A stretch of 41,993 bases of DNA from an uncultured Gammaproteobacteria bacterium (GTDB taxonomy: Bacteria; Patescibacteriota; Patescibacteriia; UBA9934; GWF2-40-263): contig CAYHDY010000004.1 in assembly GCA_964355525.1 (NCBI GenBank), forward strand, positions 1 to 41,993, given 5' to 3'. The position numbers and the translations under genes are program-made. The notes beneath the pieces are model-generated. The model had not been told where the DNA came from, did no database searches, and was given only the letters and a program-made list of their open reading frames with translations. Positions 11,613-33,732 of the stretch are shown piece after piece (within the stretch, counting starts at the first letter, position 1; every line of letters begins with the position of its first letter).

Positions 11613-11659
11613 AAACAAAAAGACCGCTCCCTGTTCTCATGTGAGATACCAGGAAGCGG
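11613..11659 (-). terminator. intrinsic terminator after the 170-aa membrane gene
   Basis: The minus strand reads CCGCTTCCTG-loop-CAGGGAGCGG (one mismatch) followed by TCTTTTTGTTT. Confidence 0.55.
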
Positions 11660-15621: not shown

Positions 15622-15633
15622 ACGAACGAAAAA

Positions 15634-16077: not shown

Positions 16078-16088
16078 ACATCGATCAA

Positions 16089-16526: not shown

Positions 16527-16586
16527 ATTGCGAACATAATAACACAAAACAAAAGCGAGGTCAGAAGACCTCGCTTAAGGATCACA

Positions 16587-16805
16587 TTACATTTTGCACT
16601 TCTTGCAACTCTTTGCGAGCATCGCGAGAGCGGACAATCCGACGAGGACGTAAATGACGCGAACGAGCATTGGCCAAGCTCCGAAGAGGACTTCAACAAG
16701 ATTCCATTGGAACAATCCAACGAGACCCCAGTTTAACGCACCGACCAAAACGAGAACCCACGCGACGCAATGAACATTGCACTTTCCATCTTTGAACATA
16801 GACAA
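16587..16805 (-). CDS. DUF378-family small membrane protein
   Basis: 72 aa. The pattern VGALNWGLVGLFQWNLVEVLFG is typical of DUF378. Confidence 0.7.
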   Translation of the reverse strand: MSMFKDGKCNVHCVAWVLVLVGALNWGLVGLFQWNLVEVLFGAWPMLVRVIYVLVGLSALAMLAKSCKKCKM

Positions 16806-16880
16806 AAGATTAGGAATAATTAAAGAAATGATAGCACATTTTCAAAGAAAGAAGAATCGATAAAAGCGTTCAATTGTTGT

Positions 16881-18221: not shown

Positions 18222-20422
18222 AACACAATTCTGTCTTTCGAATCTTCGCAATTCTCGTCAGTGCCTGCTTGTTCATTCCGCTTTTTTTCTACACAGGATT
18301 TCGACAACCATTTCAAGCGACACAAGTCTTGGCATTCTATCTCCTGATCGAAAGCACCTTGCCATTTTATCTTTCACTCATGGTTTCGCGAAACGATCTT
18401 CGACCCAATTGGAAAGATCCAATTCTCCTCTCGTTTTTCGCATACATTGTCGCAATGACCATCTCGGCGATATTCGGCGCAGATCCATGGAACAGTTTTT
18501 TTGGAAATGGAAATCGCATCGACGGAGTGATCTTATGGATACATCTATTTTTATTTTTTCTGTATCTTGTCACACTATTGCGATCGAATGAACAAACACG
18601 ACAAAAAACCATTCGTTTTTTCCTTTCCGTCGCCGGTGTTTGCGGATTGATTGGTTTATTACAGTTCATCCATCTTCTTCCAAACACCGCGCCAGAATTT
18701 GGATCGCGTGCAAGTTCTACCATCGGCAATCCGATTTTCTTCGCAGCAACACTCATCATTCCTTTTTTTCTTTCGATCGGAATGGCAATGCGAGAGAAAA
18801 ATCTGAAATGGAAACGAATCTTTTTTACCATTGCAGCAACAACAGGACTTGGAATCATCGTATCCGGAACGCGCGGTGCGCTTGTTGGCGTCTTTGCCGG
18901 ATGTGTTGTGTGGACGATTGGCTGGTTCGCATCGCGACAAACTGTTTTACATACACGCAAAATCACGGCAATTATTTGCGTGATCATTACCATTCTCATC
19001 GGCGTATTTTTGATTGCGCGTTCTTCGAGTCCTATTGATTCGACGATGTATCACCTCACGCATTTTTCGGACACAAACGTTTCCAATCGACTCGCCTATT
19101 GGAATCTTGCGATCAAAGGCTGGAAGGAAATGCCTTGGCTTGGCGTCGGATATCAAAACTTTTTTGTTGTCGCGGATAAATACTACACAACGGATCTGTA
19201 TGCAGGTGGCGGAACGTGGCCGGATAAACCGCACAATCAACTGCTCGAAGTTCTTGTCACAGGCGGAATACTGACATTTTTCGTCTATCTGGTTTTTTTA
19301 TTTTTTATTCTAAAAAAAATCATTGAACACCCAGAAACAAAAAACGAAATTCCACGCTTATCGTTGATTGCGGCGCTCATTGCCTATCTTGCACAAAATT
19401 TTTTCAGCTTCGACACGATTGTACCGATGATTGTGTTCATCGTTTTTGTTGCGATCATTTGTTCACAAGGAACGGTCGCGATCGTCCCCTACGTGCAAAA
19501 TTCAACAAACCGATTTCGAACTTTTCTTTGGATCACAGCCATTATTCCTGTCACGATATTCTTTGCATTCATCGCTCCGACCGTCCGTCAATTTTATTTC
19601 ACTTCTGCCGCCGAATATGCACCAAATCGTGAACAAGCATTTACGGCACTTGAGGCGATAAGACATCAATCATTTATCTTTGATGTCCGGATGCTGACAC
19701 TTTCTTACAGTTCTCTTTTGAATCATGAACTCGGGAATGCTCAACAGGAAACAGATCTATCACGTCGTATCAGTACTTCCGCCATCGACGTTGCAAAACA
19801 AACGATTGCCCTTCACCCACTGCGCGCAAACGATTGGTATACGTACTCACTGATTCTTTTTCTTGAAGCGAATGCGCAAATAGGATCTGAAAATATCACT
19901 CAGCGTACGAATGACATGATTGAAATTGCAAATCATGCGATCGAACTCGCTCCCGCACGCATCGAGGCACTCGTATCGCTCGCAAACATGTACGAGCTGA
20001 ACGGCGATTCAAAAAAAGCCATCGAACTTTCGGAAAAAGCCGTTGCGGTTGCTCCAAACAATGCGGACGCTCTTTGGACGCTCTCGCTCCTTTATGCGAA
20101 ATCAAACAGATTCGACGAAGCTGCGCCACTTGCAATGAAAAGCATCGAGTACGGCGTAAGTTTAAACAACAGCCAAGCGATCAACTGGCTCATCAATTAT
20201 GAAATTGAACAAAAAAACACGAACGCTGTCGTGTTCCTTTATGAAAAATCCGTGTCTATCGAACCAACGAATTTCGAATTGCTTCCAAAGCTCGCGGCCG
20301 CTTACGCAATGAACCGCGAGTACGATCAAGCGATCACCACCGCGGAAAAATATAAAACAGTGCATCCGGCCGCGGCAGATGGTGTGAATGCGTTTATTCA
20401 GCAGGTTCAACAGTCGAGATAG
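18218..20422 (+). CDS. O-antigen ligase-like (Wzy_C-type) polytopic membrane protein with C-terminal TPR repeats
   Basis: 734 aa with about 12 hydrophobic helices, including the GTRGALVG region. The C-terminal ~250 aa has TPR-like A/L/Y periodicity. Its ATG overlaps the pgi stop by ATGA. Confidence 0.6.
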   Translation: MKHNSVFRIFAILVSACLFIPLFFYTGFRQPFQATQVLAFYLLIESTLPFYLSLMVSRNDLRPNWKDPILLSFFAYIVAMTISAIFGADPWNSFFGNGNRIDGVILWIHLFLFFLYLVTLLRSNEQTRQKTIRFFLSVAGVCGLIGLLQFIHLLPNTAPEFGSRASSTIGNPIFFAATLIIPFFLSIGMAMREKNLKWKRIFFTIAATTGLGIIVSGTRGALVGVFAGCVVWTIGWFASRQTVLHTRKITAIICVIITILIGVFLIARSSSPIDSTMYHLTHFSDTNVSNRLAYWNLAIKGWKEMPWLGVGYQNFFVVADKYYTTDLYAGGGTWPDKPHNQLLEVLVTGGILTFFVYLVFLFFILKKIIEHPETKNEIPRLSLIAALIAYLAQNFFSFDTIVPMIVFIVFVAIICSQGTVAIVPYVQNSTNRFRTFLWITAIIPVTIFFAFIAPTVRQFYFTSAAEYAPNREQAFTALEAIRHQSFIFDVRMLTLSYSSLLNHELGNAQQETDLSRRISTSAIDVAKQTIALHPLRANDWYTYSLILFLEANAQIGSENITQRTNDMIEIANHAIELAPARIEALVSLANMYELNGDSKKAIELSEKAVAVAPNNADALWTLSLLYAKSNRFDEAAPLAMKSIEYGVSLNNSQAINWLINYEIEQKNTNAVVFLYEKSVSIEPTNFELLPKLAAAYAMNREYDQAITTAEKYKTVHPAAADGVNAFIQQVQQSR

Positions 20423-21548
20423 TATTTTGATAAACTTCGACTGTTTGTTTACACATGCGCTCACGAGAAAAATCCGATAGGACTCGATCATACGCCGCGT
20501 CCGCATACATACGAGATGTTTCTGGTTGTGCCTCGAGTTCATCCATCTCTTGCGTTAATCGAACGAGATCACCGGCTTCTATAAGAAGGCCGGTTTTTTT
20601 GTGTATGATCAATTCGGAAACACCACCGACGTCTGTCGCAATGACCGGCACACGAGCAAGTGCGGCTTCGAGAAGAACATACGGGAACCCTTCGAAGAGC
20701 GACGGCAAAACGAACAAATCAAACGCAGGCAACAATGTTGCATCACCGTGCGCAAAGATGACGCGATCACGAATATCGAGATCATTCGCTCGCGCGATCA
20801 ACCGATCATGATCCGGACCTTCGCCAAGAAGACACAACACAGCATTCACGTTTCGACATTTTGAAAATGCTTCGAGCAACATCGCTTGATTCTTCGGATA
20901 AGCGAATCGCCCGAGCGTTCCAATAACGAATGCGTCGAGCGATAACTTGAGTCGCGCGCGTGCGTCTACTCGAGAAAGAAATGCGGGCGATTCGATTCCG
21001 TTATGAATTGTTTGCAGCAACACGAACGGAAATAATTTTTTGACGATTTGAACATCTGCATCGGAAACGCAAATCACAGAATCGGCGGCGCGGAGAGAAA
21101 TGGAAAGATATATTTTATAAATGAATTTCGCAAGAGAATGGAAGCGTGGTCTGGGGACCATATTTATAGCTGAGGGTGAGGAGTCTGCAAGCAGACTAAG
21201 TCCATGGAGGGTGATGACAGATTTGGCTGGGTGAAAAAAAAGTCTGACGATCCATGCACCGAGAAGTGTGTGCGAGCTGTGTAAGTGAACAATGTCGGGT
21301 TGTACGTGCCAGATCAATTGCGAAAGCTGAATTGCAAATCCGAAGAATGCAAACGGATTCCATCCACGTTTCAGAGGAACAAATGTTGTCGCGATTCCCT
21401 CGCGGCGAAGTTCTTCAAAGAGCCATCCAGACGATTCGCCGATCCCGACATGAACGTGATGATTCGATTTTAAACAAACCGCAAGATCGCGCACGTGTTG
21501 TTGCGCTCCGCCGCGTTCTGCTTTTGTGATGACGTAAAGAATGTTCAT
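20394..21548 (-). CDS. GT4-family glycosyltransferase
   Basis: Internal start MNILYVITKAERGGAQQHV overlaps the upstream stop by ATGA. The C-terminal FVLPSLFEGFPYVLLEAALARVPVIATDVGG is the GT4 EX7E region. Confidence 0.8.
   Translation of the reverse strand: MNILYVITKAERGGAQQHVRDLAVCLKSNHHVHVGIGESSGWLFEELRREGIATTFVPLKRGWNPFAFFGFAIQLSQLIWHVQPDIVHLHSSHTLLGAWIVRLFFHPAKSVITLHGLSLLADSSPSAINMVPRPRFHSLAKFIYKIYLSISLRAADSVICVSDADVQIVKKLFPFVLLQTIHNGIESPAFLSRVDARARLKLSLDAFVIGTLGRFAYPKNQAMLLEAFSKCRNVNAVLCLLGEGPDHDRLIARANDLDIRDRVIFAHGDATLLPAFDLFVLPSLFEGFPYVLLEAALARVPVIATDVGGVSELIIHKKTGLLIEAGDLVRLTQEMDELEAQPETSRMYADAAYDRVLSDFSRERMCKQTVEVYQNTISTVEPAE
21144..21175 (+). repeat. 32-nt GC-rich repeat, copy 3 (degenerate, inside the GT4 CDS)
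   Basis: GCGTGGTCTGGGGACCATATTTATAGCTGAGG is read antisense as SAINMVPRPR. The adjacent palindrome AGTCTGCAAGCAGACT lies at 21183-21198. Confidence 0.6.
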
Positions 21549-22444
21549 GTTGTTCGTTTTATAAAACCGACCATCATGCCGAAAGCCGTTTCGAAATGAC
21601 CCACGATAATTTTTCGAAGTATCCAACCGATCGACGACCAAAAAAACCAAACAGCATTCATTGGCGTTTTTATACAAAGAGTCTGAAAAATCATTTTTCG
21701 ATTTTGTTCTTCCTTAAATCCCGACACAAAATCCGATTCTCGACCGGATACACTATGAAAATGATCCGCTTTTGCACTCGGTACAACGAGAAAAAAATAT
21801 CCGTGTTGTTTTGCCCTCAAACAAAAATCAACATCTTCGAGTGCTGTGCGTCCGCCGCTGAATAAGGAAAATCCATTCAATGTTGTTACAAGAGATTTTT
21901 TGTACGAACACACGCCGCCGTGAATATAAAATCCTTTTGTTGTTTGCGTAACAGCATCGTTCCAAACCTGATACCCGACATTCGTCACATCCCATTCTAA
22001 TTTTGATCGCAAACAGAATAACGTATTAAAAACATATTCGAGAAAATTTTTTTGTCTATTGTTTGAAATGACCGCCCCGACTCCGATCAGTTTCGAATCC
22101 TGATTTATCTCCCAAGCACGCATGATGTTTTCAAAAAACAACGGATCAAGAATCAAATCATCATCCAAAATAAAAACGATTTCATTGGATGCGCAATTCA
22201 TTCCTATATTTCGTGAGGATGCGGATCCGCGAAGATCCCTTTTATGATCTTTTTTAAAATACACGAACTGACAATGACGTTCGATCAATGTTTCGCGTAG
22301 ATTTGCTAAAACAGTCTCTGACAAGGCGTCATCATCAACAAGAATTATTTCTTGAGGCATTCGCGACTGTGCAAAAATAGAGTTGACGAGCAATCGCAAA
22401 TCTTTTTCACGTTTATATGTTGGAATGACGACACTGACGTTCAT
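21545..22444 (-). CDS. GT2-family glycosyltransferase
   Basis: MNVSVVIPTYKREKDL...IILVDDDA...ILDDDL motifs. Confidence 0.8.
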   Translation of the reverse strand: MNVSVVIPTYKREKDLRLLVNSIFAQSRMPQEIILVDDDALSETVLANLRETLIERHCQFVYFKKDHKRDLRGSASSRNIGMNCASNEIVFILDDDLILDPLFFENIMRAWEINQDSKLIGVGAVISNNRQKNFLEYVFNTLFCLRSKLEWDVTNVGYQVWNDAVTQTTKGFYIHGGVCSYKKSLVTTLNGFSLFSGGRTALEDVDFCLRAKQHGYFFLVVPSAKADHFHSVSGRESDFVSGFKEEQNRKMIFQTLCIKTPMNAVWFFWSSIGWILRKIIVGHFETAFGMMVGFIKRTT

Positions 22445-23106
22445 ACGGTTCGTTCTTTTTCAAAATCTTTGTTGATGAATAAATAATTCGTAACCTCAAG
22501 CGGTGGTTCATATTCTTTTTTCCAAATACAAATCCACGAAGACGGTAAGATCTGACTCCAGTCATGTGCAAACGCATTTTCCACAGGAACCGTATCGATG
22601 AAAAGAAATCGAACAGGATGTTTTGAAAAAAAATCCTGTAATAACCGTTTCACTTCTTCTGTCGGGATTAAATGTAAAAATTGCAAACAGAGCAAAAAAT
22701 CCATATCGCGAATCCCGCGCTTTTCGACATCAGCAAATGTTCCTTCGGCGAGAGACAAGTTTTGCGACCGATGTAAATATCGACCGGCATCTAAAATATG
22801 TTTGTTCAGATCGAATCCAAACCGATGCCGTGCAGGCGCACAGGCAAGGATTTCCCCGAGTCCGCACCCGATTTCGACAACAAGATCTTCCGGTTTCACC
22901 AACGCCATCAGTATTTTCACAATATCCATGCTGTATGGCTTCGCTTCCTTCGGTAAATAATGCCAGCGCAAACCGTTCGCGTCCGAACAACGATAATGCG
23001 AAAGCAAGATCGGATAAAAAATATACCGTTTGAAAAGAATCACGGGCAACAAATACACACAGTGATTTTCACGAATTCTTTTTAAAATATCCCATTTTCC
23101 ATTCAT
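22441..23106 (-). CDS. class I SAM-dependent methyltransferase
   Basis: Motif I VVEIGCGLGEIL. The start is set at the internal MNGKWDIL, which makes an ATGA overlap with the upstream stop. Confidence 0.65.
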   Translation of the reverse strand: MNGKWDILKRIRENHCVYLLPVILFKRYIFYPILLSHYRCSDANGLRWHYLPKEAKPYSMDIVKILMALVKPEDLVVEIGCGLGEILACAPARHRFGFDLNKHILDAGRYLHRSQNLSLAEGTFADVEKRGIRDMDFLLCLQFLHLIPTEEVKRLLQDFFSKHPVRFLFIDTVPVENAFAHDWSQILPSSWICIWKKEYEPPLEVTNYLFINKDFEKERTV

Positions 23107-24224
23107 ACGAAATCGTTCGTGTGACGACACGATGCAGATAAGATTTTTTGATATTGATTTGCTTGATCTTGCCCGATGTTCCATGCCCGTTTTACCAACT
23201 GTTCTCGATCAAGCGGTTTATCCAATGTTTCGATGATCGCGCGAGCGAGTACATCGGCATCCCCGACCGAAACAAGCGTTCCATACGTTCCGCATTCGAG
23301 AATTTCTGACGGGCCGGTCGGACAATCCGTACTAACAATCTTCATACCGAGTGCAAGAGCTTCCAAGAGAACGGTCGGCAGTCCTTCATGGGAGGAAGAT
23401 AACACAAGGACATTGCTTTGCACCATAAACGGAAACGGATTTGATTTCCAACCGAGAAAAAAAACGTTTCGCGATATATCCAATGTTCGAACCAATCGTT
23501 CACATGCGACTCGTTCATCTCCGTCGCCCACAAGGAGAAGCTGAAGATCTTGGTGATAGGTGTGCACAATGAGCGAAACGGCGCGAAGGAGGATATCAAG
23601 CGATTTTGCTTCTTCGAATCTGCCAACAAAAATGATCGTCTTCTTTGTCGTGTCCCAAATAATTTCTCTTTCATCGATCGGTTCTTTCGCGCGCCGTTGT
23701 ATTTCAGCAACATCAACACCATTCAAAATGACTTCGATTTTTTTCGCTGGCAGACGCAGTCGATTCACCATGAATTGCTTTATGCCAGCCGAAACAACAA
23801 TCGTTTTTTTTGAAAATACACAAACAAAGAACACCTGAACAATCGAAAGAATACTTCGGACATGCATCCCATGATTGACCGAAATGATCGGGACACGCTT
23901 CATGGAAAAATAATTCGCCAAGATCGAAAGCAAACACACATGCACAACGTTTGCCAAAATAAGATCCGGATGAATTTGTCGAAACTGTTTAATGAGTGGG
24001 AAAAAAGTTTCACGCGCATGCGTACCGACAAGCGAATGAAATCGTATTTCATTTGAGAGAATCGACGGTTTTATCGAAATCTCTTTTGTTGAGATGGCAA
24101 TGACATGAATCTCATAGAAATCGACGAGTGCATTTAAAACATGTGTCATCACTGTTTCCGCACCACCAGCTCCGTCCGCGTTCCATGGAATCGTTACAGC
24201 AAGAATGGGTTTGGATACATTCAT
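23103..24224 (-). CDS. GT4-family glycosyltransferase
   Basis: VLSSSHEGLPTVLLEALALGMKIVSTDCPTGPSE is the EX7E region. The start is set at MNVSKPILAV, which makes an ATGA overlap. Confidence 0.8.
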   Translation of the reverse strand: MNVSKPILAVTIPWNADGAGGAETVMTHVLNALVDFYEIHVIAISTKEISIKPSILSNEIRFHSLVGTHARETFFPLIKQFRQIHPDLILANVVHVCLLSILANYFSMKRVPIISVNHGMHVRSILSIVQVFFVCVFSKKTIVVSAGIKQFMVNRLRLPAKKIEVILNGVDVAEIQRRAKEPIDEREIIWDTTKKTIIFVGRFEEAKSLDILLRAVSLIVHTYHQDLQLLLVGDGDERVACERLVRTLDISRNVFFLGWKSNPFPFMVQSNVLVLSSSHEGLPTVLLEALALGMKIVSTDCPTGPSEILECGTYGTLVSVGDADVLARAIIETLDKPLDREQLVKRAWNIGQDQANQYQKILSASCRHTNDFV

Positions 24225-25114
24225 ACGGATTGTTTGATTCGTTTTGAACAATCATTCCACAATCCATGCAACACACTCAATCGCGCACGAAAACTTAAAA
24301 AATCAAAACCCGCAACAACACGTTTTATTTCATACGGATCTGTTTTTGTGTCATTCATCCCATACACAACAGTTGTGGCAGATTCAAATTTCATTCCCTT
24401 CACACGATCCACGATTTCATTCGAATAATCCATTCTCGTTCCAAACGGATATGCGAATATCGCAATCGTCTTCCCAAGTTTTTCTTCAAGAATGCTTTTC
24501 GAAATTCGAATCTCTTCCATCGCATCTTCGACTGAAATATCCGTGAGTCGCGGATGTGAAACGGTATGCGCGCCAATCTCGACGAGCGGATGATTCGCCA
24601 TCTCTTGAAGTTCTCGCCACGACAAAAATTCATGACGTCCCATGTCCGAATATGCCGTCGATTGCATCTGCGGATTTTCAATGAACCCTGTACTGATATA
24701 AAATGTCGCCGGCGTCTCGTATTTTTTCAACAAAGGAAATGCGTTTGTAAAATTATCTTTGAATCCGTCGTCAAACGTGATCACAACAAATCGTCGACCG
24801 TGTTTTTTCGGCAAACGATCGAATCCGTTTTTCAATGCGTCAACGAATGTTGCAAGCGAAATGACATGATAATATCTTTTAAGATATACAAGTTGTTTTT
24901 CGAACTCAATCGGTGGAACCGCCGGCAACTCCCACGACTCTTTCACGATAGCGACACGATGATACAGCAACACAATCACTTTCTCATGACCGCCTTCAAA
25001 AAAAACACGACTTGTCCAGTCGACAAGCTCGGGAAGACGAAAAAAAAGGAGAATAGAAACCAAAAATCGTTTGACCATATCGAAGACGATCCTATCATAC
25101 CCAATTTTTTCCAT
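24221..25114 (-). CDS. polysaccharide deacetylase (NodB homology domain)
   Basis: VVITFDDGFKDNF...GAHTVSHPRL motifs. The start is uncertain (25114 or 25078), because the track start would overlap the divergent gene. Confidence 0.75.
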   Translation of the reverse strand: MEKIGYDRIVFDMVKRFLVSILLFFRLPELVDWTSRVFFEGGHEKVIVLLYHRVAIVKESWELPAVPPIEFEKQLVYLKRYYHVISLATFVDALKNGFDRLPKKHGRRFVVITFDDGFKDNFTNAFPLLKKYETPATFYISTGFIENPQMQSTAYSDMGRHEFLSWRELQEMANHPLVEIGAHTVSHPRLTDISVEDAMEEIRISKSILEEKLGKTIAIFAYPFGTRMDYSNEIVDRVKGMKFESATTVVYGMNDTKTDPYEIKRVVAGFDFLSFRARLSVLHGLWNDCSKRIKQSV

Positions 25115-25138
25115 GTATGATAGAACAAAGTCCAATCT

Positions 25139-26464
25139 ATGAACATCCGACAAAAACAATTCAATCTCAATCTTTTCGCCCTGATTCTGCCAACTCTCGG
25201 AATCTTTGCATTGAGTTTATGGCTCACCCTCCTCTGGCGCTACCCCGTCGGACTCGATTCTGTCTCGCAATCGTTGCACTTCCGACTATTCACCTTGATC
25301 GCGATCGTCTGGCTCGCCGTCGATTATGGTTTCGGCCTGCTTGATCTGTGGTCACACAAAACGCTCGCGCGAACAACCGCCGCTCTTGTCGGTGCGAGCG
25401 CGACGAATCTTTTTTTCGCGGCGATCATTTTTTATCTCCAGCCGAATCTCATTCTCACACCGCGTCGCGTCTTGTTTGTCGATGTTGCGATCGTTTTTGT
25501 TTTATCGTTCGTGTGGCAATGGATGGTTCGCATGATTGCGCGAAAGACCGTTCGATCGCGCGTGTATTTTCTGGATCTTGAAAAAGAATTTGCAGAGATT
25601 AAAAATGAATTGGATCGTGACGGTCGAGGAAATGAAATGGAAATGATTTCGATTACGACGGGGCAATTGCTTGCGCGGGGTCTGGGGACCCCACCCATAG
25701 CTGAGGTATGTGTGTTGCCTTCGAATGAAACATTTTCTGCACCGATTCTCGAGACGCTTGCTTCCTTGCATGCGCAAGGAATCTCGTTTATCAAATTTGA
25801 TGCATTCTATGAAGATCTTTTTCGGCGCGTCTACACGCCGAACGTGACCGAATGGTGGTTTCTTGAAAACACAAATCGAAACAAGAATGGATTGTATCCC
25901 GCGTTCAAACGCATCGGCGACATCCTCGTCGGTATCGTGATCTTCGTTCTCTTCGCAATCACCTTCCCTTTCGTTGCACTCGCAATCAAACTGACAAGTC
26001 GCGGATCCATCTTTTTCAAACAGACACGAAGATCCACGAATGGTCGCACGTTTGTGATTTATAAATATCGCACGATGCGATCCGGTACGGCGACGAACAC
26101 ATGGACGACTTCGAACGACCCGCGCATCACACCGGTTGGAAACGTGTTGCGAAAACTCCGCATCGACGAATTGCCGCAATGTTTCAACCTTATCCGAGGC
26201 GACATGAGTTTCGTGGGTCCACGACCGGAACAAGAAGCCATCGCCGAACAATTACGAACCGAGATTCCCTTCTTCGATTCGCGCCACACCGTCCGCCCCG
26301 GCCTCACGGGCTGGGCGCAACTGCACGTATACGCGGGTACGACCGAAGAATCCAAACGCAAACTTCAATACGATTTGTATTATCTGAAGCACCGCTCGTT
26401 CCTTTTTGATCTTGAAATTATTTTGAAAACCATTTCGCATATTTTCTTTTTGAGCGGGACATAA
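25139..26464 (+). CDS. polyprenyl-phosphate sugar (glycosylphospho)transferase, WbaP/EpsB-like
   Basis: C-terminal KRIGDILVGIVIFVLF...IFFKQTRRSTNGRTFVIYKYRTM...DPRITPVGNVLRKLRIDELPQCFNLIRGDMSFVGPRPE is the bacterial sugar transferase domain. Confidence 0.85.
   Translation: MNIRQKQFNLNLFALILPTLGIFALSLWLTLLWRYPVGLDSVSQSLHFRLFTLIAIVWLAVDYGFGLLDLWSHKTLARTTAALVGASATNLFFAAIIFYLQPNLILTPRRVLFVDVAIVFVLSFVWQWMVRMIARKTVRSRVYFLDLEKEFAEIKNELDRDGRGNEMEMISITTGQLLARGLGTPPIAEVCVLPSNETFSAPILETLASLHAQGISFIKFDAFYEDLFRRVYTPNVTEWWFLENTNRNKNGLYPAFKRIGDILVGIVIFVLFAITFPFVALAIKLTSRGSIFFKQTRRSTNGRTFVIYKYRTMRSGTATNTWTTSNDPRITPVGNVLRKLRIDELPQCFNLIRGDMSFVGPRPEQEAIAEQLRTEIPFFDSRHTVRPGLTGWAQLHVYAGTTEESKRKLQYDLYYLKHRSFLFDLEIILKTISHIFFLSGT
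25675..25706 (+). repeat. 32-nt GC-rich repeat, copy 2 (inside the sugar transferase CDS)
   Basis: GCGGGGTCTGGGGACCCCACCCATAGCTGAGG is read in-frame as RGLGTPPIAE. It shares CCCCACCCATA with the DHE terminus. Confidence 0.75.
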
Positions 26465-26575
26465 GAAAAGATAAAGTCAAAAAGAGCAGGTGTGTCTTTT
26501 TATTTTTTTCAAACAACAAACAAAACCTCCATCACTCTTTGACTCTACGACTCTGCGACTCTCTAACTTCTTCAT

Positions 26576-26601
26576 AAAAAAATCGTCACGCGGGTGACGA
26601 T
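26576..26601 (-). terminator. intrinsic terminator after thymidine kinase
   Basis: The minus strand reads ATCGTCAC-CCGC-GTGACGAT followed by TTTTTTT. Confidence 0.7.
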
Positions 26602-27227
26602 CAGGACGAGCAGTGATTTGAAGAAGGTGCGACCGAGTGGTGTTCGACGCCGTTTGCCCGTTCGAAGTGCACGAGACAGCGTGCGTCGTATTTGTCTTTG
26701 CCACCGACTTGAATGCGTTCTGTGCTTTGTGTCGTACGTTGCGATCGCGACCCATTGAAACTTCCGCACACTCCGCAGACGGATTGCATTTTCATGACAA
26801 CCTGCGCGTGTGGCATCAGAAGTTTGATGAGTTCGAACGGAACGGCGAGAAAATCGAGATCGAGTCCGGCGATGATGACACGACGACCGGATGCGACAAG
26901 CGCGAGAATGACTTCGAGCGCTTCTGCAACATCTTCAAACAGTTGTACTTCGTCGATGGCGACCCAGACGTGATCATCGGGACCGAGCGCTTTCGACACG
27001 TAATCCAAAATTTCCCGTGCCCGCGTAATGACCGTCACTTCGAACGTGCCGCCATCGTGTGTATCGATCACCGCTTGCCCGACGCGATTGTCACGGGCCG
27101 GTTTGAACGTGATGACCTTGAGACGCGCGTGTTTTGCGAGCCGCATCTGACGAATGAGCTCTGACGACTTTCCGGAAAACATTCCTCCGGTGATGACGAC
27201 GAGTTCCGGCATGTGTGGTTTCTGCAT
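26601..27227 (-). CDS. tdk: thymidine kinase (TK1 type)
   Basis: VITGGMFSGKSSELIR P-loop, AIDEVQLF, IIAGLDLDF, and the zinc ribbon CGVCG...ARC. The start is set at the internal MQKPHMPEL, preceded by GGGGAGAG. Confidence 0.85.
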   Translation of the reverse strand: MQKPHMPELVVITGGMFSGKSSELIRQMRLAKHARLKVITFKPARDNRVGQAVIDTHDGGTFEVTVITRAREILDYVSKALGPDDHVWVAIDEVQLFEDVAEALEVILALVASGRRVIIAGLDLDFLAVPFELIKLLMPHAQVVMKMQSVCGVCGSFNGSRSQRTTQSTERIQVGGKDKYDARCLVHFERANGVEHHSVAPSSNHCSS

Positions 27228-27313
27228 GTGACTCTCCCCGAAGGTTCTGAGCTTGTCGAAGAAGAACGAACCGCGATCATTATACACGATCGAAAATCAA
27301 ACGCTGTGGATAG

Positions 27314-27351
27314 AAAAAACCACCCTTCGCCTGAAAAAGGCTATGGGTGGT
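27314..27351 (-). terminator. intrinsic terminator after the 921-aa gene
   Basis: The minus strand reads ACCACCC-19 nt-GGGTGGT followed by TTTTTT. Confidence 0.55.
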
Positions 27352-30116
27352 CAGAGAGCCGCGGGAGTTTCTGCTTCCACGGTTTTGTTTTCCTCGACAG
27401 GCTGAGTTCCTGGCACAAATTCGAACCGATTACAGTGATGCACGGAGCAAATCGTTATGCGCTTACGGACGTTTGCATCAAGCACCCATTCAGGCAACCC
27501 GCGATAGCCCGGAAAACTGGATGTGAATCCGACATCCGCGTCTTCCTCATGCAGAAGCCAAATGTACCCTTCTCCGTATTGTGTGACACTTTTGTGAATC
27601 ACGAGCCCGTGTTTATCAACCACGTTCGTTGGATTTGCGGTGCTGTGGTAGTAATAGACATCATTTCCAAACGTCATCGGCTGCACGAAATCTCCGATCG
27701 AGATCATGCGACCGGAACAATCCTTCTGAAACTCTTTTCCCAGATTCGGCACGGTGAGCCGACGTGCAAGAAGATCTTTCGGAACCGGAATCATGACACC
27801 GTCTTTCCCGATAAGAACCGCCTCACCGACGGGAATGACATGGAATGCACGTGTGACACCCGTATAAAATGACAAGTACGTTCCGTAAATCACTTGGTGC
27901 GCTTGCCCCGTTGAGTTACCGACAGGCAATGCCTTGTCGAACCGAATTTCCCAGTAATCCCGGACGCTACCCGATCGTATGATCGTTCCGGGAGTGCCAA
28001 GGGACTCGGTATTGTCGAAACCACGATTGACTTTCGGATCTCCGCCAAGATACATCACACGATCACCGATTTTGAACGGTCTGTTCACTGCGAGATCTTT
28101 TGCTGCACCGCTTGCAACGACTGTAATCTGCTCGTTACCTTCCGTGACCGACAGTTTCTTTTCAACGAAAGCCTGAAGCGGAATCATGAGTCCGTTTGTG
28201 AAGACAAGATCATCCAAGGATCCTTTGGCTTTACCCGGAACAAGACACTGAAGCTCGAGGACGTCACCCTTTTTCAGAGGCGAGAGATCGTCCGTTTGGA
28301 CAACCATCTTCGTCCCCTGTTTCAGTCCAGTGTCCGAATCTACTGCGACGAGTTGGAACCAGTCGGGCGTTTCGGGAAACACCCACACGCTTTCTTTGAT
28401 GATCGGAATGATGATCCCGTTTTCGAACAGGATTCCCACATCGTTCGGATGTTTCATCAGCTGCAGCGGTGCAAATCCGAGAATCTGTTGCACGGTTCCG
28501 TACGGAAGCAATGCTTGAAAACGCGTCACGAGAATGTGATCAAATTCCTCAAGATCTAAACGCTTATCATGAAGAGCTACCTTCGTATCCGTTCGTTCGA
28601 AGTGAATCGGTTTCCAAGCGAATCGAAACTCACCAGCTCCGAACAAAACCGTTGTCTCTTCGGGTGTCTCTTTGAAACGCAGAAGATATCCGTCCGGGTT
28701 TTCCGGATCCTTGAAAATCTCCCCTACGGTCAAGATCGGTGGATTATAAACGCCCGTTTCCCGAATCGCATTACCGACCGAGAGTCTGATGTCGGCAAAC
28801 GTGAAGACGCCGTCTTTCAATTCCGGCACCCACCAAGCAATGCACGAGAGAAGCGTTCCCCCGTTCGATGTCAGATAGATCCATTCGTCGCGCACAGCCA
28901 TCGGATCCGAATGCGCGAATTGCGCAAGCACGTCTCCGTCATCGTCCACACGCAGTTTCGTGATCCGTTCCGGTTTTTTTATGCAAGTGAGCGATCGAGG
29001 ATCCGAACTGACAAGCGACATGCCCGCACGGATCTCGAATCCGTCCGCAAGCGTGACCAGAGAGCACGTTTGCCATTTCTCTTTCACACGGACAAGCTCG
29101 AAATAATCGAGAAATCTTACATGGAACAGAACCGGTTCCGCGATACCTTCAAGACGCATGTGTAGACCGGTGCTTCGTGCGGGTTGGCAAAATCCTGCCA
29201 CTTCATACATTTCGCCTTTCTTGATCTCTTGAGGCATATCCTCACGAGCCAGCAATACATCTCCGACACGCACCACTTTTCCATTGAGGTGGAACGATCC
29301 GGATGGAAGGTCTTTCCATTTTGATGCGTCAGGCAATCGCGTTGCGCTTACGAGAGCGGCATGCATGCGATCAAACGTCGTATCGCCGACAGCTTCATCT
29401 CCTGCGAGGGAAAGTGCCTGCGATTTCACGAGACGTGCAAGATGCTCGGGTCGAGCCGACCAGCTGGCCGTCAGAACCCACAGCGAATTGCGCAGACTCG
29501 CGCACTCCCAATCCCAAACGGTTTTGAACTGAGAAACTTTCGGATGCGCATCACGCACAGAATTGACGAGCGTCATGAACGATTGATCGAAGAACGAATC
29601 CACGACCGCGTTCACGGCGAACGCCGGATTCCATCCGTACGTCCTGAGCGAACCAGTTTCGATGTCGAACGTGTCGTCTTGCATGAGACCGCACTTGTAC
29701 AGATACTCGTTTTCACTCAGCACCGCACCTTTGCGAAATGCGAGTGTCACGCGTTTGACCTCGCCGTTATCGACACGAACAATGAACAGGACGAACGGAA
29801 ACGCGAGTTGGAATTCGGTGCGCGTTGCATCCGATTCCGTCAATCCGAATTTCTTCAAACCATCACGTTCGATGACCGATGCCCATTCACTCGGGTCCGG
29901 ATGCCATCGCGCCGATCGGACACACGGAAGTTGCTCGATCACGTACACGGTTGTCGCGCCGATCGAGTACACCATCCGCGTCCCTTTCGGGAGATACTCG
30001 GATGTGTCCGCTTGTCCAAAGACACGAAGCGAAACGGGAGCCGACATCGTGCCGTCTTCACGGATCAACGATGCGGTTCCATTCTCATCGATCTGAATCT
30101 TTAGAACGTTCGTCAT
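27351..30116 (-). CDS. giant hypothetical protein, paralog 2 (921 aa)
   Basis: Full-length colinear similarity to the 1055-aa neighbour. Shared motifs are VYVIEQxPCVR, KFGL, LAFP[FY]V[LV]FIV, WxW..SLRNxLxVLxAxW, KKGExYxV, R[VI]DxDGD, [LV]KDGxFxF, ISIGDxV and GYxxLPEWV. AAGGAGG lies 5 nt upstream of the ATG. Confidence 0.8.
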   Translation of the reverse strand: MTNVLKIQIDENGTASLIREDGTMSAPVSLRVFGQADTSEYLPKGTRMVYSIGATTVYVIEQLPCVRSARWHPDPSEWASVIERDGLKKFGLTESDATRTEFQLAFPFVLFIVRVDNGEVKRVTLAFRKGAVLSENEYLYKCGLMQDDTFDIETGSLRTYGWNPAFAVNAVVDSFFDQSFMTLVNSVRDAHPKVSQFKTVWDWECASLRNSLWVLTASWSARPEHLARLVKSQALSLAGDEAVGDTTFDRMHAALVSATRLPDASKWKDLPSGSFHLNGKVVRVGDVLLAREDMPQEIKKGEMYEVAGFCQPARSTGLHMRLEGIAEPVLFHVRFLDYFELVRVKEKWQTCSLVTLADGFEIRAGMSLVSSDPRSLTCIKKPERITKLRVDDDGDVLAQFAHSDPMAVRDEWIYLTSNGGTLLSCIAWWVPELKDGVFTFADIRLSVGNAIRETGVYNPPILTVGEIFKDPENPDGYLLRFKETPEETTVLFGAGEFRFAWKPIHFERTDTKVALHDKRLDLEEFDHILVTRFQALLPYGTVQQILGFAPLQLMKHPNDVGILFENGIIIPIIKESVWVFPETPDWFQLVAVDSDTGLKQGTKMVVQTDDLSPLKKGDVLELQCLVPGKAKGSLDDLVFTNGLMIPLQAFVEKKLSVTEGNEQITVVASGAAKDLAVNRPFKIGDRVMYLGGDPKVNRGFDNTESLGTPGTIIRSGSVRDYWEIRFDKALPVGNSTGQAHQVIYGTYLSFYTGVTRAFHVIPVGEAVLIGKDGVMIPVPKDLLARRLTVPNLGKEFQKDCSGRMISIGDFVQPMTFGNDVYYYHSTANPTNVVDKHGLVIHKSVTQYGEGYIWLLHEEDADVGFTSSFPGYRGLPEWVLDANVRKRITICSVHHCNRFEFVPGTQPVEENKTVEAETPAAL

Positions 30117-30172
30117 GATTGCCTCCTTATCTTCGATTGGAATGGTCGTTCCTGCACGGTTGCAGGCCGAGT

Positions 30173-30201
30173 TTTTTACCTGATTTTCATAAAATGGTCA
30201 A
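30173..30201 (-). promoter_or_regulatory. promoter TTGACC-N17-TAAAAA for the 921-aa gene
   Basis: The minus strand reads TTGACCattttatgaaaatcaggTAAAAA. It is part of a 58-nt block (30160-30217) identical to 33576-33633. Confidence 0.55.
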
Positions 30202-30208
30202 GGTCATT

Positions 30209-30311
30209 CGCGTCCCCCTCCGACTCCCCCTGTGCTCAGGGGGAGGGGAACGACACGATTCAATGCGCTACCCCGCCCCTGAGCACAGGGGAGGGTATGG
30301 GTGGGGACGCG
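30209..30311 (-). repeat. double-hairpin element (DHE) copy B, inverted relative to A, C and D
   Basis: The plus strand reads CGCGTCCCCCTCCGAC-TCCCCCTG-TGCT-CAGGGGGA...CGATTCAAT...CCCCGCCCCTG-AGCA-CAGGGGAGGG-TATGGGTGGGGACGCG. This is the reverse complement of the A/C/D arrangement. Confidence 0.85.
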
Positions 30312-30342
30312 AATTAAAAATCCGCCCATTTGCATGGGCGGA
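30312..30342 (-). terminator. intrinsic terminator after the 1055-aa gene
   Basis: The minus strand reads TCCGCCCAT-GCAA-ATGGGCGGA followed by TTTTTAATT. Confidence 0.7.
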
Positions 30343-30360
30343 CAAGATTCTCCTGAGTCT

Positions 30361-33300
30361 TCAGGGTACATACTCGATCTCGTCGATCGAGGCGTACCAG
30401 CCTGGTTGTTCCGGAAAATCGATACGGAACATGTTGGCATGGTCTTCACACACGATACCGATTTGCTGTCCTTGAGTGAACGTTCCGAGGAAGATCGGGG
30501 TTTTGACACCCTCCTTCATCCGAACTTTATCACCGACTTGCAAATCAATCTCGATCTCCGTCTCCTTCCCCATCCACTCCGGATCATTCGGGAAACACAC
30601 AATCACTTCCCCGTTCGCACACTCGACGATGAATCCGCGTTCGTCCGCAAGCACGTTACCGCGTCCGTGAACAGGTTCCACATCCGTCTTGATCCGAACC
30701 GGTTTCTCAATAATCTCTTTCTTCTCGACCGGCCGAACCAGCTCGGGAACCATGGTCAGTGCAAGACAATGATCCACTCGATTAGCCCCGATTTCCCCCA
30801 GTTCGGTAAAGGCCTTTCGTACCCATTCGGGCAATTTTTCATATCCGATGATGTCACGACTGCGGTACGTACACACTTTTTTTTCAAACCACAGAAACAG
30901 AAACGGTATCCTCCCGTCGCCTGCCATTTCTGAGTGAACGACGAGCGCCGGGAGAAATGTATCAGATGCTTCCTTGCTGATTCCCCCGTTGGACTCGTAT
31001 CCCCATGACCTCGTGGTCACAGTCACGACATCACCGATCGAAATCGGTTTTCCGTCGACACCCTCTCCAACGAGCTTTCGTGTCTTCAGTTCCAACTGTC
31101 TCTCGAGCATCTTCTCCGAAATCTGAAACGTTTTCTTTCCGTCCGTGTAGTTCCCCGTCTGAACCGTCGACGGCCATTTCGGCAGCAGGCGCAACGTCTG
31201 GATCTTCTGAATTTCTCCAAGTCCAACCTCGCCGAATCTACGTCCATCTTTCAACTCAAGGTTGATATGAAAGTGGTTACCGCAGGGACGAAATTCTTTT
31301 ACAATCATCACCTGATTTCGAAAACCAGAATCATTTCCAACGTACAAACACTCTTCTCCGCTTACGAACATTCCTCCAGTCTCAGTTGTCTTTCCTCGTG
31401 TGAAAGACAGAGCGCTCGCATCCGCTTTCGGAAACTTTTTGAATGAACCGTCCGTTTGCTTCACCGAGACACGAAAGAGAAACTCCTCCGAGAACAGAAT
31501 GAAACGACCGTCGGAAAAAAAGATTTCTTTTTTTGTAGGATCGAAGCACACCACTTGCAGGAGTGAACCGATCTCCGCGCCGTCGATCGCTTCATCAACA
31601 CGCAGTACAGAACCCGTCTTCAAGAACGTTGTGTCATTTCCCACACGTGTTTGAACGAACGTGTAATCATCGTTCCACACCCACTTCCCGTCTTTCACAA
31701 CCGGAATAGGTGCATTACCAAACGCGACTTCGAGATCGATCTGTTCGAACCGGTCTGTCTCCGTCGTCCGATTCACGAATCGCACCGGAGTGTACAGATG
31801 TACGTGCCCATCAATGCGGCGCTCTTCTTTCGCAAGCAAATCGAAGCTATTCAGCAACTTAAGATGATCCTCTCCGAACCGAACTTCTTTTTCTTTGCAA
31901 ACCACTTGAACCGTTTTCCAATCCGCAAAGAACGTTCCGTTGCAGAAGAACGGGATATCCCGATCCATTCCGCGGAAACGCACATAGATCGTCGTTCCGA
32001 ACGGCTTTTCAACCGCGAAGACTTTCGCGACGAACAAAGTCGTTTCCACCAAATGATCTCTCCCCGCTTGAGCTTCACCTGTGTCGAAAAACACGTCGTG
32101 CACTCGATCGATGCGGTAGTTTACGTAAACGGATTCTCCTTCACAAATCCGTTTGTTGTCGAAAGAAAATGCGCCGTCTTTGACTTCGAACGTCTTCACA
32201 GAATACCCGGTTCGCAGTGTTTTTCCCTGATCCACAGTGATGTAAAACCAGTTGTTTCGAAAACACACTTCAAGATCTCCGTCCATGTCGATACGCACGT
32301 CTTCGATCGGAACAGTCCCGCTTCGAAAACCTAAGTTCGGAGGAAATTCTGCGGCGGAGGTAAATTCGATGTAGTTGCCGACGCGCGCTTCGATCCCGTT
32401 GAACATGAATTTCTTTTCTGCGTTCTCATCGATGGCCTTATTTGTGAAGGCGAGCAACAGATCCAGTCGGATCGGTTCCGCCATCTCGACGAGTTGAACC
32501 ATACGCGTTTGCGGATCTTTTTTCGGTTCGAAGAAATGTTTGACTTGATACGTCTCCCCTTTCTTGAACGGAGCGGCATCCCCGCTCGCGACGAACGTAT
32601 CAAGAACTGAGATCAGCACCCCTTGAAAGAAAATGTCCGGCGATGGACTGACGATCAGTTGTTGATCATCCATTCCTGCGATGTAACGCGGCGCCCGTTG
32701 TGCCGCGTTTACGAGAACTTCGAAAAGATCTTCGCCTCTATGCCTTTGCAGATTCTGAATGAAGGACTTTGGCGTCCTTCCCGGCGCGATCCAATCTGCA
32801 TCGAGAACGAAGAGCGGATTGCGCAGACTGTAATACTGCCAATGCCACGGTGTGCTCAGTTCCGGAATGAGGCCGGCGTAACGATCATAGGTTTCGAGCC
32901 AGTGATCATTGAACGGCGTGTTCCAAAACGCATGCACCATCTCATCGATCTGACGAGCAAGCGTTCCACCTTCTTGACCGAACGAATGTGATCCCGATCC
33001 CCAACAAATGTTGTGATTGATACTGTTGAAGTTCGGCACGCTCGGCAAATACAGATCGTCATTCCACGAACGCAACGGTTCCGTGCGGAAGTAAAAGTGA
33101 ACGGCTGTACTTTCGATCTGGTCACCGGCCGTGTTCACAATGAACACCACATACGGAAATGCCAATCGGAAGATCTTGTCGTTGTGGAACTTGTCCGGAT
33201 TCAATCCGAATTTGCCGACGCACCCGCGCCGTCTCAATCGATTGATCACCTCCGGTTGGATTTTGTTCCAAACGACGGGACGGACGCACGGCGGTTGCTC

Positions 33301-33528
33301 GATGACATAAACTCTTCGATCACTCATCCCTTCGTGCACGAACACACATCCGGACGGCAACACCGCCAAATGATCCTGTCCCGCGGACAAAACCGAGGAG
33401 TTGAATGTGTGTCGAGCAAGCTTCATCCGCTTGGGCTCGGCACCCATCACTTCCTTCACACGATCCACTTGCAATTCCGCAACACCGTTCGGATTCACAA
33501 TGATCCGCTTTTCATCACGTATAGCCAT
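30361..33528 (-). CDS. giant hypothetical protein, paralog 1 (1055 aa)
   Basis: It shares the motif set of the 921-aa paralog and has an extra ~100-aa C-terminal extension. AAGGAG lies 6 nt upstream of the ATG. Confidence 0.8.
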   Translation of the reverse strand: MAIRDEKRIIVNPNGVAELQVDRVKEVMGAEPKRMKLARHTFNSSVLSAGQDHLAVLPSGCVFVHEGMSDRRVYVIEQPPCVRPVVWNKIQPEVINRLRRRGCVGKFGLNPDKFHNDKIFRLAFPYVVFIVNTAGDQIESTAVHFYFRTEPLRSWNDDLYLPSVPNFNSINHNICWGSGSHSFGQEGGTLARQIDEMVHAFWNTPFNDHWLETYDRYAGLIPELSTPWHWQYYSLRNPLFVLDADWIAPGRTPKSFIQNLQRHRGEDLFEVLVNAAQRAPRYIAGMDDQQLIVSPSPDIFFQGVLISVLDTFVASGDAAPFKKGETYQVKHFFEPKKDPQTRMVQLVEMAEPIRLDLLLAFTNKAIDENAEKKFMFNGIEARVGNYIEFTSAAEFPPNLGFRSGTVPIEDVRIDMDGDLEVCFRNNWFYITVDQGKTLRTGYSVKTFEVKDGAFSFDNKRICEGESVYVNYRIDRVHDVFFDTGEAQAGRDHLVETTLFVAKVFAVEKPFGTTIYVRFRGMDRDIPFFCNGTFFADWKTVQVVCKEKEVRFGEDHLKLLNSFDLLAKEERRIDGHVHLYTPVRFVNRTTETDRFEQIDLEVAFGNAPIPVVKDGKWVWNDDYTFVQTRVGNDTTFLKTGSVLRVDEAIDGAEIGSLLQVVCFDPTKKEIFFSDGRFILFSEEFLFRVSVKQTDGSFKKFPKADASALSFTRGKTTETGGMFVSGEECLYVGNDSGFRNQVMIVKEFRPCGNHFHINLELKDGRRFGEVGLGEIQKIQTLRLLPKWPSTVQTGNYTDGKKTFQISEKMLERQLELKTRKLVGEGVDGKPISIGDVVTVTTRSWGYESNGGISKEASDTFLPALVVHSEMAGDGRIPFLFLWFEKKVCTYRSRDIIGYEKLPEWVRKAFTELGEIGANRVDHCLALTMVPELVRPVEKKEIIEKPVRIKTDVEPVHGRGNVLADERGFIVECANGEVIVCFPNDPEWMGKETEIEIDLQVGDKVRMKEGVKTPIFLGTFTQGQQIGIVCEDHANMFRIDFPEQPGWYASIDEIEYVP

Positions 33529-33588
33529 GGATGACTCCTTGTTGTTTTCAATTGGAGAGGACGGACCCGCATCGTTTGCAGGCCGAGT

Positions 33589-33617
33589 TTTTTACCTGAT
33601 TTTCATAAAATGGTCAA
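33589..33617 (-). promoter_or_regulatory. promoter TTGACC-N17-TAAAAA for the 1055-aa gene
   Basis: The sequence is identical to the promoter at 30173-30201. Confidence 0.55.
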
Positions 33618-33624
33618 GGTCATT

Positions 33625-33732
33625 CGCGTCCCCACCCATACCCTCCCCTGTGGTCAGGGGAGGGGTAGCGAATTGAATCGATTTATTCGCGCTCCCTCCC
33701 CCTGAGCACAGGGGGAGTCGGAGGGGGACGCG
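33625..33732 (+). repeat. double-hairpin element (DHE) copy C
   Basis: Layout, 5' to 3':
- CGCGTCCCC-ACCCATA.
- Hairpin 1: CCCTCCCCTG-TGGT-CAGGGGAGGG.
- GTA, then GCGAAT-TGAATCGATTT-ATTCGC, then G.
- Hairpin 2: CTCCCTCCCCCTG-AGCA-CAGGGGGAG.
- TCGGA-GGGGGACGCG.
The 9-bp termini are perfectly complementary. Confidence 0.9.

Follow-up and report, generated by a model that had tools for sequence, protein, structure and literature searches.

The DNA analyzed here, a stretch of 41,993 nucleotides that forms positions 1 to 41,993 of contig CAYHDY010000004.1 (assembly GCA_964355525.1; hereafter the window), carries two giant genes in tandem whose products, G1 and G2, are likely to be the ubiquitin-conjugating (E2) tier of a ubiquitin-like conjugation cassette in a bacterium of the Candidate Phyla Radiation (CPR). 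The cassette comprises seven genes, read on the minus strand in the order P358, RuvB-like ATPase, JAMM peptidase, ThiF-type E1, ubiquitin-like protein (Ubl) with an HeH domain, G1 and G2. The reading that we favor makes G1, the 1055-amino-acid protein, the active enzyme with its own recognition array, and makes G2 non-catalytic. The two giants are not equivalent, because an Asn/Cys site resembling that of E2 enzymes is found in the 1055-amino-acid protein only.

The site was defined from 148 N-domains aligned to the family profile with hmmalign. The column of G1 Asn166 holds Asn in 128 of the 148, and that of Cys175 holds Cys in 131; both residues occur together in 128 domains and neither occurs in 17, which are all the Cys-less ones. 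The motif around them, [LF][PT]N[IV]-x(4-8)-[IVLM]C[LMF], resembles the HPN[IV]...G.[IV]C[L] of E2s, as in the example LPNICKDGEVCLDVL from contig L006 of a Patescibacteria metagenome-assembled genome (MAG). E2/UBC domains have a Cys some 8-10 residues after the Asn, on a loop followed by a short helix, and this arrangement is present in G1 (N166, C175) and not in G2. The His of the E2 HPN motif is absent from the G1 site. We predict that the nucleophile is G1 Cys175, preceded by Asn166. A different residue, the Cys of the PCVR motif (C81 in G1, C65 in G2), had been called invariant in the first-pass annotation, which was made from the letters of the window. That Cys is common to the window pair, yet it is Cys in three of six close homologues and in just 20 of the 148 aligned domains (Gln 47, Ala 27, Cys 20, Arg 16), and we rejected it as the nucleophile on this lack of conservation. 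The Cys175 prediction tells experimenters which mutant to make, and it is not that of the PCVR Cys.

In the same alignment, G2 has Gln146 in the Asn column and Ile152 in the Cys column, and both columns are substituted in all five second giants that we found. The site reads DDTFDIETGS in the window G2 and GFPEIDARSLLAGRD in the second giant of locus L001, and the 17 Cys-less sequences, among them G2 and the second giants of L001, L003, L005 and L009, share the local pattern GL..DDTF.... Because G2 and its orthologs lack both residues and fall in a separate, old clade, G2 looks like a ubiquitin E2 variant (UEV): it keeps the E2-type domain, has lost the predicted catalytic Cys, and persists beside an active-type paralog. 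By analogy, we propose that G2 is a non-catalytic, UEV-like partner. Two viral contigs also have E2-like genes in pairs: L021 (527 kb; 6694-8999) and L044 (134 kb; 6787-8813) each carry two tandem short genes of 346-406 amino acids before JAB, ThiF and Ubl, and there, unlike in the CPR pair, both copies have the Asn and the Cys.

The giants are intact and ancient paralogs. Both reading frames begin at ATG and have zero internal stops, and the proteins align end to end, as the first pass had it, with 24% identity over full length (BLASTP, E 1e-33); the N-domain of G2 aligns with that of G1 along its entire length. The motifs that had been read from the N-domains (VYVIEQ[LP]PCVR, KFGL, LAFP[FY]V[LV]FIV, SLRN..VL.A.W) and from the regions downstream (KKGE.Y.V, R[VI]D.DGD, KDG.F.F, ISIGD.V, GY..LPEWV) were all found in this alignment. 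A neighbor-joining tree separates the G1 and G2 types into two distinct clades, the second consisting of the window G2 and the second giants of L001, L003, L005 and L009, and cross-genome orthologs of each giant outscore the in-genome paralog in BLASTP. It follows that the G1/G2 duplication is ancient and that the pair has been maintained; every CPR-type relative retains both genes. A recent duplication, as suggested earlier, is thus rejected for the genes and stands only for the block of DNA upstream of each.

The N-domain belongs to a large family. An exhaustive HMMER search against 50%-identity cluster representatives returned 1973 representatives at E<=1e-3 and 221 at E<=1e-30, some of which match barrel repeats only; the N-domain itself is present in 137 of 151 sequences (150 listed matches plus the protein P0006), the remainder matching only the C-terminal barrel repeats. 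A word-indexed homology search was nearly blind to the family (2, 0 and 2 non-self matches), a tblastn search of a phage-type giant against the INPHARED phages gave no match, and a second scan of genome contigs returned the same five genomes and added none. Pfam Prok-E2_D (PF14460) is matched by 17 of 64 family members (best 6.2e-8), with no competing family, and NCBIfam PRTRC_B (TIGR03737) by seven of the 64 (best 1.1e-6). P0006, a standalone protein of 219 amino acids to which PF14460 had been assigned beforehand, scores 4.6e-38 against the N-domain profile, built from 11 family N-domain sequences with G1 as the first row. Given these matches of the relatives, P0006 and the PRTRC-like E1 and JAB of the cassette, the giants are, as far as sequence can tell, a remote sister group of PRTRC-B and prokaryotic E2 family D, outside the curated membership of either. 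The earlier suggestion of an E2-like N-domain holds at the level of the family; among solved structures, Foldseek found no UBC/E2 in the PDB. That the domain supplies the E2 missing from the cassette is plausible from its JAB, ThiF E1 and Ubl neighborhood.

An AlphaFold2 (AF2) model of G1 residues 1-300, made from a 64-sequence alignment, has a pLDDT of 87.3 and a pTM of 0.74. The model opens with a three-stranded N-terminal sheet, continues with a six-stranded meander into which a helical hairpin is inserted, and then has a long loop, followed first by a short and then by a long helix and by several further helices. N166 and C175 lie on the long loop, with Cys175 at its end, after the beta-meander and directly before the short helix, and the modeled order of elements is compatible with an elaborated UBC fold. 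In the full-length model (pLDDT 82.4), residues ~291-1055 (~770 residues) form about ten small all-beta modules with low-confidence linkers between them. Against the PDB, this array gave 21 Foldseek matches at E<=1e-3 (5.5e-8 to 9e-4), all of them SPT5-containing complexes, Mind bomb, HERC2 or Agenet/Tudor tandems; the best were SPT5 KOW arrays (5.5e-8), Mind bomb 1 MZM-REP (1.3e-5) and HERC2 (4.2e-5). Identities are 10-21%, and overall template-modeling (TM) scores are poor, since the barrels have no fixed orientation relative to one another. The last two G1 barrels are marked by pairs of FP..P.W motifs in the alignment with homologues; Pfam SH3_15 matches the region of the L001 second giant that corresponds to them at 5.6e-5, and five of the 64 family members match this model. 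The strings of SH3/Tudor-like barrels that had been guessed from the letters are therefore borne out, and the G1 array can be likened, by Foldseek and by the SH3_15 matches of its relatives, to Mind bomb 1 MZM/REP, HERC2, SPT5/NusG KOW and Tudor/Agenet repeats. In the first giant of an Uhrbacteria MAG (L005, 12700-12880), the last SH3_15-like repeat lies in another frame past the called stop, which reflects either a frameshift or an error of MAG assembly.

The N-domain family adjoins a JAMM peptidase, a ThiF-type E1 and an HeH/beta-grasp Ubl in five CPR-type loci and in 28 of 30 viral contigs. The order RuvB-like, JAB, ThiF, Ubl, G1, G2 is common to the window, a groundwater MAG (L001/L002), a Logan contig (L003) and the Uhrbacteria MAG (L005), and the G1 and G2 pair is also present on contig L009. 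Viral contigs of up to 527 kb from IMG/VR carry the N-domain in 30 cases, 28 of them in the order E2-giant (800-890 amino acids), JAB, ThiF, HeH-Ubl, and their flanks encode phage SbcD/SbcC, helicase, radical-SAM proteins and RNA-polymerase subunits. L007 and L008 have E2-giant, JAB, ThiF and Ubl as in the viral contigs, and L013 has JAB, ThiF, Ubl and E2. Shorter single-E2 versions with JAB, ThiF and a 70-amino-acid Ubl occur in Saccharibacteria and Falkowbacteria MAGs, L006 has an E2-like gene followed by a Ubl only, and a Paenibacillus plasmid has an E2-like gene (annotated as hypothetical), a 420-amino-acid hypothetical gene and then a ThiF family adenylyltransferase. The two phage loci examined contain a second ThiF-family gene of 286-290 amino acids ~1 kb downstream of the module (L011 13977-14849, L033 13825-14685), and in L011 and L012 a small WYL_2-domain gene lies directly upstream of the E2 giant.

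The partner genes retain the residues expected of them. Cys171 of the E1 is conserved in at least 90% of 34 sequences, and the best NCBIfam model of this protein is PRTRC_ThiF (3.1e-12; 46 bits against a cutoff of 144.75). The JAMM motif residues E92, H139, H141, S149 and D152 are invariant in the alignment and conserved in at least 90% of 34 loci; the best NCBIfam model is PRTRC_A (8.8e-4; 18.9 bits against a cutoff of 101.8), and homologues match Prok-JAB. Orthologs of the Ubl match Rho_N (4.4e-3, 2.8e-3), ThiS (0.14) and TGS (9.4e-4). An (A/S)G.K tail is conserved among the C-termini of the 34 Ubl homologues that we compared, with ...(A/S)GxKG, or KG plus a single Cys, at the end of the phage and short forms and SGDKA, SGDKQSS or SGVKQT at the end of the CPR forms. 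The RuvB-like ATPase (238 bits against NF000868, cutoff 282) is confined to the CPR-type cassette; its counterparts in L001, L003 and L005 are syntenic and share 52-53% identity with it. P358 has orthologs in L001 and L005 that are 43-47% identical (BLASTP, MAFFT) and no match in Pfam or PADLOC; its true start is probably M60, 59 codons later than the called one, which would give a protein of ~299 amino acids. An alternative open reading frame (ORF) upstream of the RuvB-like gene, 37341-38315, was rejected, since BLAST against the relatives shows 37595-38671 to be the conserved one. The motif G(A/G)xVxxxAAxMxxEDLxxxGLPxAVxRAxA, HhH-like in appearance, is common to P358 and to the RuvB-like ATPase, where it lies in the N-terminal extension, and C258-P-x-H261...C272-x-x-C275 of P358 is a possible zinc ribbon.

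To the paralogy, the Asn/Cys site and its loss in the G2 clade, the neighborhood, the conserved E1 and JAB motifs and the barrel array, all of which are observed, we add an inferred scheme of thioester chemistry, G2 function, targets and DNA linkage. The tail of the Ubl would be trimmed by the JAMM peptidase, and its C-terminus would then be adenylated by the ThiF E1 and probably carried on Cys171. From there the Ubl would be transferred to Cys175 of G1, with Asn166 in the role of the asparagine of the E2 HPN motif. The KOW/Tudor/Mind-bomb-REP-like array of G1 would recognize the target or a scaffold, making G1 an E2 with a built-in E3-type module. G2, being non-catalytic and analogous to UEVs, could bind the Ubl or the substrate, or pair with G1.

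Several results weigh against the assignment of the giants as E2s. Its main weakness lies in the searches for solved relatives: with the N-domain model, confident as it is, Foldseek retrieved neither an E2 nor any other significant entry from the PDB (best E 0.046, TM 0.12), and the N-domain hidden Markov model (HMM) gave only noise against PDB sequences, with no solved relative. G1 and G2 themselves have no match in Pfam, NCBIfam, PHROG or PADLOC, and none to PF14460 or TIGR03737 even at E<=10, so that they stand outside the curated cutoffs. When the family was compared by hhalign with six human E2s, the sole paired stretch was N166...C175 onto HPNINSNGSIC (P 0.0033); this places N166 and C175 on N77 and C85 of UBE2D2, with weak statistics, and the matches to canonical E2s are short and weak (P 0.0033 and 0.011, probability 4-10%). 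CPR Ubls do not end in Gly, and it is therefore uncertain which of their residues is activated. Finally, a 1290-amino-acid homologue with an intact Asn/Cys site lies among polysaccharide-synthesis genes (L010 3902-7774) and has no E1 or JAB within 4 kb, so some giants may act in trans or serve another role. A rival explanation, of which the first pass had raised the part on targets or effectors, is that the giants are not enzymes and instead are targets, scaffolds or effectors of the E1, JAB and Ubl, with the N-domain a binding module and its Cys structural. It would account for the missing PDB E2 and the missing direct family matches; the barrel arrays do resemble binding modules, and the Cys-less G2 clade demonstrates that the domain persists without the Cys. 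We nevertheless regard it as unlikely. Asn and Cys go together in 128 of the 148 N-domains and are lost jointly, as expected of two residues that act in catalysis together; the cassette has no E2 apart from this domain, yet its E1 Cys is conserved; and standalone 200-250-amino-acid forms of the domain adjoin JAB and ThiF.

The idea that G2 is also catalytic, through a non-cysteine nucleophile and an oxyester intermediate, has a precedent in the Bub E2s, which lack the Cys, were once predicted to be inactive, and act through a Ser oxyester (PMC11601596). Many G2-type sequences do have DDT or DQT motifs at the site. However, the 17 Cys-less sequences have no conserved Ser, Thr, Tyr or Cys column at the site or close to it, and the E1 of this cassette retains its Cys, unlike the Bub E1, which makes a catalytic G2 improbable. 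Since the conserved Cys lies in a fold that looks new and has no counterpart in the PDB, the N-domain might instead be some other thiol enzyme, such as a papain-like peptidase or deconjugase or a transglutaminase-like protein, and to this we attach little weight: none of the alignment columns has a His shared by more than 50% of the 148 N-domains, so a Cys-His dyad is unlikely and a Cys-His peptidase was rejected; the only family matches are to E2 families; and deconjugation is already covered by the JAMM peptidase. Least probable of all, to the point of being hardly credible, is that the giants are structural or host-recognition proteins on a prophage remnant and stand beside the Ubl genes incidentally. 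Relatives are indeed common on IMG/VR contigs with phage SbcCD, helicase and RNA-polymerase subunits in their flanks, and the BFVD matches of the N-domain are uncharacterized Caudovirales proteins only, one of them from Acinetobacter phage ME3. But the window is chromosomal, with MurG, MraY, PyrG (CTP synthase), PGI, glycosyltransferases and tRNA-Lys, PHROG holds no match, the phage module sits among genes of DNA metabolism and not among virion genes, and chance does not explain why about 40 loci keep the gene fixed beside JAB, ThiF and Ubl. On balance, an active E2 in G1 beside a non-catalytic G2 accounts best for the pair.

Judged by sequence similarity, the module is closest to the uncharacterized PRTRC triad. 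PRTRC_B/PF14460 is the sole family that any member of the N-domain family matches, the best models for E1 and JAB are PRTRC_ThiF and PRTRC_A, and the triad of E2-like protein, JAB and E1 is the same; all scores, however, are far below the curated cutoffs. The cassette proteins scanned against NCBIfam, a scan that covered all but P358, gave no match to the PRTRC_C-F or PRTRC_parB models, and the full PRTRC cassette is thus not seen here. The E2 domain is here fused to 600-800 amino acids of beta-barrels and the Ubl bears an HeH domain, and the module is found on CPR chromosomes and in large phages, whereas PRTRC is found on plasmids or integrative and conjugative elements. To our knowledge, PRTRC itself has not been characterized experimentally. 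An active E2-like protein and a Cys-less paralog kept as a pair, in five lineages here, recall Ubc13-Mms2/Uev1a; this analogy is one of architecture, and we claim no sequence kinship past the E2-like motif; both proteins here are about 1000 amino acids long. UBE2O and BIRC6 are large E2/E3 hybrid enzymes that carry a conjugating domain and substrate-recognition modules on one giant polypeptide. In G1, by comparison, the E2 domain stands at the N-terminus and a uniform string of SH3-fold barrels makes up the recognition part, and we claim no homology to either.

Only three bacterial ubiquitination-like families have been characterized, Type II CBASS, Bil and Bub, and all serve host defense (PMC11601596). 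The module shares with them its parts list of E1, E2, JAB-type peptidase and Ubl (PMC11601596; PMC10557695), and its Ubls, like bacterial Ubls described previously, carry extra N-terminal domains (PMC11601603). In contrast to Cap2 of Type II CBASS (Cap2/Cap3), in which the E2 is fused to the E1, the E2 here is not, and in contrast to Bub, the Cys is kept in both E1 and E2. A giant barrel-array E2, a Cys-less E2 paralog, a RuvB-like ATPase and an occurrence in phage genomes are all seen here and are lacking in CBASS, Bil and Bub. PADLOC 2.0 gave no match for G1, G2, Ubl, E1, JAB or P358 and only generic AAA matches for the RuvB-like protein; membership of a known defense system was rejected, as no PADLOC model was matched. 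We found no description of this module in the literature. It differs from what has been described in its giant barrel-array E2, its retained Cys-less paralog, its HeH-Ubl, its RuvB-like and P358 accessories and its distribution across CPR bacteria and large phages. The HeH domain of the Ubl, the RuvB-like ATPase, the HhH-like motif in the ATPase N-terminus and P358, PolA and holA among the L001 neighbors, and SbcCD and helicase in the phages are hints of a role linked to DNA. Taking all of this together, we put forward, tentatively and as something we would not yet bet on, that the module is a fourth prokaryotic lineage of ubiquitin-like conjugation, distantly related to PRTRC and found on CPR chromosomes and in large phages, with a giant E2 that has an E3-like array and, in CPR bacteria, a Cys-less, UEV-like twin. 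The Ubl, with its presumably nucleic-acid-binding HeH domain, might be conjugated in concert with the RuvB-like translocase, so as to tag proteins on DNA, for example at replication or recombination intermediates or on invading genomes.

The features of the window on which this account draws are collected in Table 1.

Table 1. Positions of the cassette genes, predicted sites and intergenic elements in the window
Feature	Position	Strand	Description and basis
G2	27351-30116	minus	921 aa; paralog of G1 with the same N-domain fold family and barrel array, without the Asn/Cys site
Degenerate "active-site" stretch of G2	29661-29681	minus	Q146-DDTFD-I152; hmmalign to family profile
Repeat block, copy 1, upstream of G2	30157-30217	minus	61 nt; proposed TTGACC-17-TAAAAA promoter and start of 5' untranslated region (UTR)
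Palindromic GC-rich element	30207-30314		between G1 terminator and G2 promoter block; inverted relative to the other three copies
Intrinsic-terminator-like hairpin and T-run, 3' of G1	30320-30343	minus	10-bp stem
G1	30361-33528	minus	1055 aa; E2-like N-domain and about ten SH3-fold beta-barrels; ORF and translation
Last two G1 barrels	30364-30711	minus	residues about 940-1055; Mind bomb SH3-repeat-like; absent from G2; Foldseek 4xi6, 9l8y
G1 N-domain	32686-33528	minus	residues 1-281; Prok-E2_D/PRTRC_B-like
Predicted active-site stretch of G1	33004-33033	minus	N166-FNSINHNI-C175
Cys81 codon of G1 (PCVR cysteine)	33286-33288	minus	column not conserved
Repeat block, copy 2, upstream of G1	33573-33633	minus	61 nt; one mismatch to the other copy
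Palindromic GC-rich element	33622-33734		between Ubl terminator and G1 promoter block
Intrinsic-terminator-like hairpin and T-run, 3' of Ubl gene	33743-33765	minus	10-bp stem
Ubl precursor	33807-34232	minus	141 aa; HeH/Rho_N-like N-terminus, acidic linker, beta-grasp ending LEFVKKSG136-DKQSS
E1, ThiF-type adenylating enzyme	34235-34948	minus	237 aa; Pfam ThiF 2.5e-12; Cys171
JAMM/JAB metallopeptidase	34958-36166	minus	402 aa; E92, H139-x-H141, S149, D152
RuvB-like AAA+ ATPase	36153-37337	minus	394 aa; Pfam RuvB_N 1.2e-35; conserved ~85-aa N-terminal extension
P358, first cassette gene	37595-38671	minus	no family match; CPxH...CxxC motif

The block upstream of both giants, first reported as 58 identical nucleotides, is real, but its actual size is 61 nucleotides with one mismatch between the copies. 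An exact 38-mer core of it occurs at only two sites, where shuffled sequences lead one to expect 0, and the block, unlike the giant genes, is recent. The "adjacent repeat terminus" that had been included in it is the 11-nt terminal inverted repeat, TTCGCGTCCCC, of a palindromic element of ~108 nt that lies in opposite orientations at the two giant-gene sites. Read on the gene strand, each giant intergenic region has a terminator hairpin and T-run, the palindromic element, TTGACC-17 nt-TAAAAA, and a 5' UTR with an AAGGAG ribosome-binding site. Both terminator hairpins were top-ranked in a terminator scan. TTGACC-17-TAAAAA is the presumed promoter of both giants; a consensus scan gave no promoter call at these upstream regions, which can be put down to the proposed -10 being TAAAAA.

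Besides the two palindromic elements in Table 1, the window has copies at 11475-11614 and 37427-37537. One of the four copies is inverted and one has a 30-nt nested insertion, and each has an intrinsic-terminator hairpin on one side and, on the other, the -35-like CTTGAC of the minus-strand gene that follows. The element resembles intergenic repeats of the REP/MITE type, here in a CPR genome. The giants of the relatives each have their own terminator, TTGAC promoter-like site and 5' hairpin (L001 9878-10000 and 13016-13101; L003 3640-3784 and 6485-6602; L005 9873-10000), and in L003 the upstream regions of the two giants are ~70% alike across 85 nt. Therefore, matched regulation of the giant pair may be a conserved trait that goes beyond the recent event in the window genome. 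Elsewhere in the window, PyrG is 71% identical to a Candidatus Uhrbacteria MAG protein, and several neighboring genes are also common to the two, which makes a CPR/Patescibacteria bacterium the most likely source of the window. GC content is 50-58% in the cassette region (25000-39000) and 42-46% in the glycosyltransferase/O-antigen-type cluster (15000-25000), and one or the other may have been acquired horizontally.

By the count of N-domain sequences given above, the module is abundant; it is nowhere annotated, and its carriers are large phages as well as CPR bacteria with their reduced genomes. If the giants are what we consider likely, the module would add an E2 family without a solved structure, a natural fusion of an E2 to a recognition array, a prokaryotic pair of active E2 and pseudo-E2, and an HeH-fused Ubl. 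It offers a testable entry into ubiquitin-like tagging in phages and in ultra-small symbiotic bacteria.

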